The notes under the pieces: generated by a model
What the model was told of the DNA's origin: nothing
What the model saw: only the letters and a program-made list of their open reading frames with translations
Databases searched by the model: none
Part shown: positions 26,973-33,176 of the stretch, one piece after another
How positions within the stretch are numbered: position 1 is the first letter of the stretch
Layout of the letters: each line of letters begins with the position of its first letter
Made by a program: the position numbers and the translations under genes
From: Octopus vulgaris
Taxonomy: Eukaryota
DNA: 64,000 nt
Reading direction: 5' to 3'
Assembly (NCBI GenBank): GCA_951406725.2
Contig: OX597841.1
Coordinates: 26,598,001 to 26,662,000, forward strand

Positions 26973-27450
26973 GGATAGACAGATAGAGAGATAGAGAGAT
27001 AGATAGATAGATAGATAGATAGATAGATAGATAGATAGATAGATAGATAAATAGATAGATAGATAGATAGATAGATAGATAGATAGATAGATAGATAGAT
27101 AGATATATATATAGATAGATAGATAGATAGATAGATAGATAGATATATGGATAGATAACTTTTTATTGTAGCCACACAGGGCTAAACACAGAATAAAAAT
27201 GGACGAAATACAATGTAGAATTTTTTCTTTTCGAGGTGGGATGGGTGGGGCAACAAAAAAAAAAAAAACGTTTGATCAATAGGGATCTGTGGGTTGTGTG
27301 GTGTATAAAAAAGCAATCTATATATATATAAGGTTCACAGTTTAGGTGTAGTCTTGGAAAGAAAAACCTACAAAAAAGACCAAGGTCACCTCAGGCAATT
27401 CGAAAAAGAACACATGAGTAAGTCGCCTTACTTCTCGTTGTCTCTTTTGG

Positions 27451-30400
27451 TTACAGATTTATGCTTAAAATAGTGTCGTCTTTCATACTGACCATTTTTG
27501 CCACTTTTACCCACTTTTTATTAAAACATTCGTTCGACAAAGCCTTCCTCTCTATTCTCATCCTCCTTTTCAAGTGGTACTTGAAAAAGTTGACGAGAGA
27601 CTGACCAGAGAGGAAGGTGTTTGTTTGCAGTCCTTTCAAACGCGTCCACCACACACATTCTTTCGCCATAGCCATCAGCGTAACGAAAACCGTTTTCCCT
27701 TCCCGTTTAAAGGAAGGTGGTGGAACAATATTCACAATAGACTCGGCCGATAGGCGAGCCTGACCTACACGTGACAACAGCTGTTCGACGAAGGACCACA
27801 GCTCTGAAATATCTGGACACTGCACGAGTGCGTGCAGAACGGTTTCGTCGCTCTGACCGCATCTCGGGCAGGTCGGTCCGGTGATGGTTTTCGAACCGTG
27901 TCTGTAGCTCTTCTCTCGAACAGGTAGTGCGTCTCGATAGCACTGCCAAGCCAGGGATTTCTGGAAGTTATCCATAGGCCCCGGCCCGAACGTCGTCCTG
28001 AACAGGCGGGTTAGGAATTCCTCGTCGACGCCCAGGTTTGCCCCGAGTGTGTCGTCGGACCTCCCCTCCACTAGTCCTCTATAGAACGCTTTAGTCGTTT
28101 GGAAGTTGCACAAGTTTGACCCCGGTCGGCAGAGCTGCTGTAGAGCTTGGCGACACTCTCGGTGCCAATCGCCCAGTTTCGGTCTCTTTTTGATCCACGT
28201 TTGCAGTTCGGTCAGTGAGACGAGCTGCGGGAAGTCGCGCCTCACAAACGGCGCCCACACCTGTTCACCGTCGTCGATGAATTTCCAGAGATGTCGCAGT
28301 CTCAGCGCATGCCTGCGCATCATCAACCACGGCATGCCCAGTCCTCCATTCAACGGATGTTGACAGCAAATGGACTTCCTCACCATCGGAACGCCACCCT
28401 TCTACAGGAAGCGGAAGAGTATGCGTTCCAGTTTGGTGATGGTGGCGTCGGGACAAGGTACGACGGTCAGGCGGTAATCGATGACGGATGCGATGTACGC
28501 GTTCGCCACCTCCGCCCGGCCTTTTAGAGACAGCTTTCTCTCGGCCCATGTTTGGCTGAGAGCGACCACTCTACTCGTGATCTCGTCCCAGTTCTTATCC
28601 ATTTGGAGGTCCGGACTGAACCAGACCCCGAGCAATTTAACCGGTCCGTCCGTCCAGCGTCCCACTACTGAGCCGCAGTCGGACGGCATGGGCTTGCTTC
28701 TCCAGGTGCCGAGTAGCAAACCCACTGACTTTTCCGGGTTAATCTTTGCTCCCGTCACCGTTTCATATTTTCTTAGTGTCTCGCCGACCAGCTCGATGTG
28801 CTGGTAGCTCGACACTATGACGGTGACATCGTCCGCATATGCCGACACGCTCGTCCCGCAACCCAGTTCCCGTGGGATGCCCCTCAGTGTCGCCAGCTTC
28901 CGCAGTAGCGGCTCGAGAGTCAATACATACAGAAGCGCCGACAGGGGACACCCCTGACGGACCGAACGCGTGATGTCAAACGGTTTAGACAGGTGACCGT
29001 TTACCCGAATCACCGATCGGATGCCGCTATACAAGGCAGCGATCCAACCGCGGAAGACGGGACCGAAGCCAGCCGCCCTGGGGACGGCCGCCAAGTACCG
29101 ATGGTCGACCCTATCGAAGGCTTTAGACTGATCCAAATTTATCAGCGCCCCACCCATGCCAGGATCCTTAACTACCCTGTCCACAATGTAGCGCATCAGA
29201 TGGAGGTTGTCATGTATGGTTCTGCCCGGCACGGCGCATGTTTGCGCCCTGTCGACCAGTTTACCAATGACAAGCGCCAACCTCTCGGCTATTACTTTGG
29301 CCAAAATTTTCAAATTGCGTTGAGCAGAGTGATGGGCCTGAAATTATCTATAAAATTCCCCTTGTTTGAGTCTTTCTTCAGCAACGTCACTGCACCTCGG
29401 CTCACGAAACCGGGGATTCTCCCGTTTTGTTGCCAGTTGCAGTAGACTGATGCCAAGAGTTCGCCAAACAAGTCTGGCATTCGACAATACAGCTCGTAGG
29501 GTAAACCATCCAATCCAGGCGACTTATCCCTCGCGCAGCCCGCCATCGCATCCCACACGTCAGCGGCTGTGATGGGACTTTCACAACACTCCGCCTCTCT
29601 TGCCGAGAGCCGCGGCAGGTCGGTCAGGTAGGCACTGAAATCCATCCCTCGTTCCGACCCACCACTCGCACCAAACAGTCGAGCAAAGTGCTGTTGAAAG
29701 GCCTCACACATCCTTTCGGGTTCGAGTAAACTGCATCCCTGTTGATCTATTAGAGACCGAATGGTTGATCTGTTGCCACGCTGCGCCTCCGCTACCCGGG
29801 CCTCTCGCGCAGCTTCAATCCCTTCGTTCCTTAAGGCACGCATTTTAGCTCTGACGACGCAACCTTCGTGCTTGGCGTTGAGGTGTTGGTCGAGGGCCAT
29901 CCTCGCAGCTAGCACGTTGGTTGCGCTGCCAGTGGTAAGTGCCTCTTCTAGGTTCTTAACTAAGTCTCCCTCTACTCTATTTCGTTCTATCGCTAATTCC
30001 TTGCTAAACCTAATTGATTCCGACTTTATTGCCATTTTCAGGGCGTACCACCAGCGGTTGTTAACGACCGCTCCCGTCAGCGCCCTCTTAATTAACTCGC
30101 TAATCCGGTTCCTGTAAACCTGTCGCGCTAACAGCGACGTGTTCAGTTTCCAGTAACCGGGACCCTGCCTATGTGTTTTATCTAAGTCGAGCGTACACGT
30201 AACAAATTTGTGATCTGTGTAGCTGACTATTTTAAATTGTGGACATCCTACACTATCCCTATCCGCTGTCCTGCATAGAATTCTATCTAGATAAGATCTC
30301 GACGATCCGACGCGGTTTGTCCAAGTCCACGTTGGCACGTTCGGATGGTCGAGTCGGAACCTGTCAGACAAATGGAAACGTCTGAGCAGGTCTTTGAGGC

Positions 30401-32846: not shown

Positions 32847-33176
32847 TTTCTAATGTCGAGAAGAAAATAACAGAAATGAAATGGGGTCGAAACTGCCCCT
32901 AGGGGCGAATTCCTCCCTTGGAATGGCACTCAAATGAAAGTTGGTTGCCTTACACACCTTATTTGCAAAAATCTACACAAAAATTGGCCTATAAATAGTC
33001 AAAATAAATGATTACCTTCGGAGCTGAAACGACATCACATCCGTCAATAGATAGATAGATAGATAGATAGATAGATAGATAGATAGATAGATAGATAGAT
33101 AGATAGATAGACAGCCAGCCATACATACATACATACATACATACATACATACATACATACATACATACATAAATGG

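Follow-up and report, generated by a model that had tools for sequence, protein, structure and literature searches.

A Tx1-like LINE set between two (TATC)n arrays in Octopus vulgaris as a candidate microsatellite-preferring retrotransposon

The window, i.e. the whole stretch of DNA analysed here, comprises 64,000 nucleotides of the Octopus vulgaris genome (contig OX597841.1 of assembly GCA_951406725.2, positions 26,598,001 to 26,662,000, forward strand). It harbours a LINE on the minus strand, in which a 5′ UTR, ORF1, an interval of 66 bp, ORF2 and a 3′ UTR follow one another (Table 1). The description of this copy as full-length in the sequence-only reading applies to its extent, which is complete from end to end (5,889 bp), but not to ORF2, which carries a 1-nt frameshift and an in-frame stop. 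As had also been claimed, the same tetranucleotide directly adjoins both element ends in the same orientation, with (TATC)16 upstream and (TATC)46 downstream as called by TRF. The 5′ junction reads (TATC)16-TAT/TGACGG (33047/33046), and at the 3′ junction (27158/27157) the element sequence AATAAAAAGT is followed by TATCTATCCATATATC(TATC)n, with AATAAA stopping 4 nt short of the boundary. A poly(A) tail is indeed absent, as the element terminates in AATAAAAAGT directly before the TATC array. Because the junctions fall inside the repeat, a target-site duplication is unreadable at this LINE; the candidates comprise exact matches of 3 and 7 nt and matches of 11-19 nt with 1-2 mismatches. The last 143 nt of the 3′ UTR showed no significant stable fold (z=-1.36), and such a fold was rejected as a feature on these grounds. 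Searches of the 64-kb window with blastn and tblastn returned no second copy of the LINE.

Table 1. Coordinates of the LINE, its parts and the adjoining or related repeats in the window.
Feature	Position	Strand	Remarks
SINE-like repeat	33172-33345	-	reminiscent of an octopus SINE; 19 further matches in the window
(ATGT)13	33120-33171		
5′ flank	33047..33111	-	perfect (TATC)16 ending in TAT; TRF 16.2 units, 100% matches
LINE	33046-27158	-	full-length copy
5′ UTR	32847..33046	-	200 bp; first base ambiguous by 1-2 nt versus the repeat
ORF1	30957..32846	-	629 aa, open
ORF2	30890-27451	-	broken; 1-nt frameshift near 29315, in-frame stop at 28402-28404
ORF2, APE-type endonuclease domain	30183..30890	-	open; Exo_endo_phos E=4.7e-17
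ORF2, reverse transcriptase piece	28405..29343	-	between frameshift and stop; RVT_1 E=4.1e-25
ORF2, C-terminal piece	27451..28401	-	zinc-binding domain at ~27796-27960; zf-RVT E=2.6e-6
3′ UTR	27158..27450	-	293 bp; AATAAA at 27167-27162; poly(A) absent
3′ flank	26974..27157	-	(TATC)46, few variant units; TRF 46 units, 92% matches
Presumed CR1-like LINE 3′ fragment	26760-26968	-	short (CTAA)n end
TC/TATC array	26656-26752		
Presumed CR1-like copy	60813-60965	+	
Presumed CR1-like copy	61082-61289	+	

The core of ORF1 is predicted to consist of two RRM-like domains and one CCHC zinc knuckle (residues 343-358), with T/N-rich ends of low complexity. The knuckle was matched by zf-CCHC at E=0.002, slightly below Pfam's cut-off, and its C, C, H and C residues are unchanged across 14 aligned ORF1 cores. 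The predicted model (pLDDT 80.8) found its best fold matches among tandem-RRM proteins (E ~4e-5), at a low TM-score of 0.26. All catalytic positions of the ORF2 endonuclease (N8, E37, Y112, D141, N143, D202, D226 and H227) are present by alignment, and the active site of the window copy is, judged at this level, intact. Its hairpin region reads WTWTNRVGSSRSYLD. The predicted endonuclease model (pLDDT 94.2) is closest in fold to the human L1 endonuclease (TM 0.86, E=1e-20).

This anatomy fits the Tx1 clade, to which the element had been assigned from its sequence: ORF2 opens with an APE endonuclease bearing the catalytic residues, the reverse transcriptase (RT) is followed by a C-terminal zinc-binding domain, and ORF1 is Type I-like (RRM plus CCHC knuckle) by prediction, with low TM-scores. 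Such an ORF1 is consistent with Tx1 in animals according to the available part of PMC5203782. The nearest named protein stems from Acanthosepion (Sepia) pharaonis (53% RT identity). RT trees of 86 and 36 rows placed the window element in a cephalopod-type branch (support 100/99), and the group holding it together with elements that abut U2 snRNA (L052:5815-5977, L055:4675-4885) or 5S rRNA (L042:4422-4534, L046:2726-2844) was supported at 99/96 with 36 rows and at an SH-aLRT of 99 with 86 rows; fish L1-like proteins fall outside this group. U2 snRNA and 5S rRNA genes are among the Tx1 targets listed in the available part of PMC4494074. The anchors of these trees are known by their flanking U2 or 5S sequence and not by name, and the root was placed on proteins with automatic names only. 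Judged by anchors of this kind, the LINE likely belongs to the Tx1 clade (L1 group), and the earlier assignment is retained. Proteins with a Tx1L-like hairpin lie in this group as well; P0320 and P0350, whose hairpin is like the Tx1L loop grafted in PDB 2V0R, were placed nearest outside the cephalopod-type branch, with weak support (81/55). A distant relative (L063:9202-9356) has U1 snRNA sequence 1.4 kb behind its ORF.

The background of repeats was determined from the 58,111 bases of the window that are not part of the element, its own flanks included. Perfect TATC or GATA sequence extends for 8 nt on both sides of 1,319 positions (2.3%), and for the TATC strand alone the value is 1.4-1.6% of positions; for any perfect microsatellite of 12 nt on both sides, the proportion is 6.3%. 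GATA-type arrays called by TRF make up 5.7%, and those of every period up to 6 together make up 26.8%. Because a flanking pair of any other repeat would equally have drawn notice, the arrangement at the window copy, taken alone, is uncommon yet within chance, and its flanks are suggestive only as a sign of targeting. The proposal that the family might itself generate (TATC)n found no support, since just one of the 30 merged TATC/GATA arrays in the window is preceded by an AATAAA..G end. The reading favoured here, which is considered fairly probable, is that the family inserts preferentially into (TATC)n, whether via an enzyme or an RNA route. In its favour are the presence of the same repeat, on the same strand, on both sides versus a background of 2.3-5.7%, and the RT relatives with readable flanks, which abut U2 snRNA or 5S rRNA.

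Other copies of the family were sought in public sequencing runs. The stretch is contained wholly or partly in 20 of the 24 runs listed (77-82% of sampled words in the best ones), and four runs were compared with the element extended by 16 bases of flank at either end (X1 and X3 as Logan contigs, X23 and X24 as raw reads). The contigs from X1 (18,316) and X3 (14,942) span all 30 bins of the element, and the family is therefore multi-copy; summed contig depth was not taken as copy number. At the site of the stop, X1 reads another base in 86,536 of a summed depth of 86,732 and X3 in 194,062 of 194,419; at the site of the frameshift, one extra base is present in 79,425 of 82,793 and 54,069 of 121,721, respectively. 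Most depth thus reads an open frame at the stop in both runs and at the frameshift in X1, so that the lesions are mainly private to the window copy or to the way it was assembled, and ORF2 of the family is open. The 3′ junction is reached by two of the 16 pieces listed (33,667 more exist), and both continue to align into the flank. Both contigs have diverged from the window copy, with 13 differing letters and with gaps numbering 5 and 3, and their flank alignment covers all 16 bases in one and 8 in the other, which has 16 letters unplaced that need not be repeat; TATC was inferred in both from the extent of the alignment and not from printed letters. None of the 16 pieces listed reaches the 5′ junction, so that the 5′ junction of the window copy itself is the one at hand. 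Loose ends at either junction were seen in 0 of the 15 listed (2,090 more), which speaks weakly in favour of the preference. Contigs running over the element ends number 41 and 25, counts in which the two ends are pooled and clipped contigs may be present; the low number of these contigs and the zero unlike run-ons were set aside, as filtered records and clipping could explain both. The raw-read runs X23 and X24 yielded 10 and 42 reads, respectively, from ~1.9 billion letters each, with no junction among them. The link of the family to TATC finds some support at the 3′ end in both listed junction contigs and is represented at the 5′ end by the window copy.

A sister lineage emerged from a scan of prokaryotic genomes, in which 42 of 49 loci came from a single bacterial metagenome-assembled genome record, G001, which is represented in the analysis by L001-L040, L044, L048 and L086-L103 on 16 contigs. 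Its contigs carry head-to-tail arrays of young full-length relatives with 50-54% RT identity to the window element and are likely host DNA contaminating the bacterial record. As some of these contigs may represent haplotypes, or parts of a single array, they do not count as independent. All of the 62 sister 3′ ends found by pattern, as well as those of the contig-4 family missed by the pattern, end at AATAAA, and neither poly(A) nor a microsatellite occurs among the 39 distinct 30-mers that follow. An AATAAA ending without poly(A) is hence lineage-wide among the cephalopod-type sister elements, and the missing poly(A) tail was rejected as a sign of targeting. It also follows from this ending that the sequence behind it is no long built-in tail. 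Each sister subfamily has its own, unrelated spacer of ~11-18 nt after AATAAA (read by eye). Fifteen of the contigs fall into 8 subfamilies, with endonucleases that are identical within a subfamily and share ~90-96% identity from one subfamily to another; in the identity matrix, rows c14 and c7 are lowered by an off-register protein start. The sixteenth contig is more distant. The endonuclease hairpin is the same in 10 of 12 loci, off by one residue in one and different in the distant locus.

In the two-copy array of contig 16, the spacer is found on both outer flanks with 16 of 18 bases alike (2 mismatches), and in contig 5 it recurs in the 5′ outer flank at 17 of 18, an arrangement that resembles a duplicated target; the 5′ outer flanks of contigs 18, 3 and 2 match the spacer at just 10, 8 and 10 of 18 bases. 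In one subfamily, two arrays whose outer flanks differ end in a common spacer core, which also precedes 5′-truncated copies; the two 5′ outer flanks seen match the sequence after AATAAA at just 10 and 8 of 18 bases. A 3′ sequence can therefore travel with the element without marking its target. The junction motif of the window copy is absent from all 103 loci. Viral contigs contained no relatives among 194 pattern matches and no matches to the 3′ end, metagenome contigs contained 36 loci, none of them close, with full-length matches reaching 40% RT identity at most, and a search of the ESM Atlas returned generic RT clusters only. Five related ORF2 pieces (P0308, P0456-P0459), which have their longest contig of 26,301 bp in common, possibly represent another tandem array of this lineage.

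The alternative that survives best is that (TATC)n is merely the family's own 3′ end, carried to many kinds of sites, and that the window copy landed in TATC by chance. It accords with the restriction of other-copy support to the 3′ end and with the sister subfamily whose sequence after AATAAA is common to arrays with different outer flanks. However, it needs a same-strand TATC array to lie on the 5′ side by chance, as is the case at 1.4-1.6% of positions, and any tail of repeats able to pair with their genomic counterparts would in its own right steer insertion, at which point this account merges with a preference for TATC. It is regarded as unlikely.

The repeats next to the element bear on a broader alternative. 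The fragment on the distal side of the 3′ TATC array, which is taken to be CR1-like from its C-terminal motif, is followed by the TC/TATC array, and the other two CR1-like copies form a local tandem pair without TATC. For the latter reason, the 3′ TATC array was rejected as an inner part of this neighbour; because the fragment adjoins its far end, TATC arrays collect other elements too. Upstream, the SINE-like repeat is followed by (ATGT)13 and then by the 5′ TATC array, which was rejected as the usual tail of this repeat, given that 0 of its 19 other matches precede TATC. Elsewhere in the window, a tandem array of a 107/212-bp unit (12.6 copies) occupies positions 21-1362. An Rfam search of the window and 7 sister-flank loci gave no match, and with it no assignment of the sister spacers to any known RNA gene. 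A broad preference for, or survival in, AT-rich simple repeats of many kinds, TATC being one of several, would be in keeping with the position of the CR1-like fragment between the same array and a TC/TATC array, its other copies lacking TATC, and with a window in which simple repeats make up 26.8%. Against this, both listed 3′ junctions align into TATC instead of being clipped at the element end; such a habit is regarded as slightly less likely again than a tail only. That an ordinary, non-specific LINE came to lie in an abundant repeat to which its family is unlinked would suit a single copy in a window where microsatellites on both sides are common (6.3% perfect, 26.8% loose), but it is very improbable in view of the two diverged copies that also run into TATC at the 3′ end and of the nearest RT neighbours with readable flanks, which are site-specific types.

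The preference for (TATC)n is kept as the leading reading, against which stand the share of microsatellites in the window (26.8%) and the 0 of 39 sister 3′ ends that abut a microsatellite. Mechanistically, the predicted nick of the endonuclease lies on the (GATA)n strand, putatively between GATA units (GATA/GATA) or one base earlier. Transcript cleavage usually takes place 10-30 nt behind AATAAA. Since AATAAA lies 4 nt from the junction, the transcript likely reads a short way into the repeat past the terminal AATAAA and would carry several UAUC units at its 3′ end. These units would then anneal to the nicked strand, and reverse transcription would be primed there. For SART1Bm and R1Bm, annealing between target and RNA 3′ end has been proposed, as described in the available part of PMC7265360, and in L1 the hairpin helps to choose the target according to the available part of PMC1950540. 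Because the sister spacers are unrelated despite endonucleases that are 90-96% identical, the RNA 3′ end may pick the site besides the enzyme. By the same comparison of near-identical sister enzymes with unrelated junction sequences, the earlier proposal of a candidate sequence-specific endonuclease is somewhat weakened, and the RNA end may carry much of the site choice. A choice by the enzyme alone may still apply.

A further-reaching version, which is tentative and rather doubtful, holds that the landing site of this cephalopod Tx1 lineage is encoded not by the endonuclease but by a short stretch of flank that the RNA has captured. With AATAAA at the very end of the element, the transcript would take along 11-18 nt of flanking DNA, which would guide the next insertion. 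A founder that landed in (TATC)n would thereby have become a genome-wide microsatellite homer, and sister subfamilies with almost the same enzyme would stack as tandem arrays at unrelated sites. Targeting would then be self-acquired and could be reprogrammed by exchange of a short 3′ RNA extension.

If the preference for (TATC)n holds, it would add a new repeat unit to those sought by microsatellite-seeking Tx1 elements and would bring cephalopods, with genomes that abound in simple repeats, into their host range; an intact endonuclease domain would also become available for assay. This would be a modest addition. The sister arrays lend themselves to a natural test of what sets the site of an APE LINE, the enzyme or an RNA extension taken from the flank, a mechanism that bears on the frequent switching of target specificity in the Tx1 clade and on the retargeting of LINEs as insertion tools. 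The standard interpretation, given in the available part of PMC4640811, is that the targeting of multicopy sequence provides a harmless niche.

For Octopus vulgaris, a repeat library with 80 L1-Tx1 families, 13 of them recently active, has been described in an article whose available main text does not contain the word "target" (PMC13282606). The window family may well be among these 80 and may be recorded in Repbase, Dfam or the Zenodo library. The available parts of PMC10294476, PMC8967140 and PMC5203782 give no target for a cephalopod Tx1 element, and a (TATC)n- or (GATA)n-specific Tx1 element did not appear among the hits listed by full-text searches of the accessible literature, outside of which subscription papers mostly fall. 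By analogy, the window family probably shares the habit of Kibi and Koshi, for which neither the TATC unit nor a cephalopod host came up in the literature covered.

Among known systems, SART1Bm and R1Bm of the R1 clade are likewise APE LINEs, with a target-like RNA 3′ end that is proposed to anneal to the nick; they differ from the window element in clade and in their telomeric or rDNA targets, and SART1Bm has a poly(A) tail (available part of PMC7265360). Tx1L of Xenopus laevis shares the APE endonuclease, the RT and the zinc domain with the window element; unlike the latter, it hits the Tx1D transposon by means of a proven sequence-specific endonuclease (PMC4494074 and PMC1950540, in the parts available), and the hairpin of the window endonuclease is shorter than, and unlike, that of Tx1L. 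The closest parallels are the microsatellite-specific Tx1 families given in the available part of PMC4494074, namely Kibi on (TC)n, Koshi on (TTC)n and eight crocodilian families on (TTCC)n/(TTTC)n; Kojima's working threshold for such a family, in the text available, is the same microsatellite in >20% of flanks. Like these, the window element is a Tx1-type LINE with a simple repeat on both sides, whereas their units are pyrimidine-only and its own branch is a separate, cephalopod one (100/99). With TATC as its unit, the window family is not Kibi or Koshi itself and may work like them.
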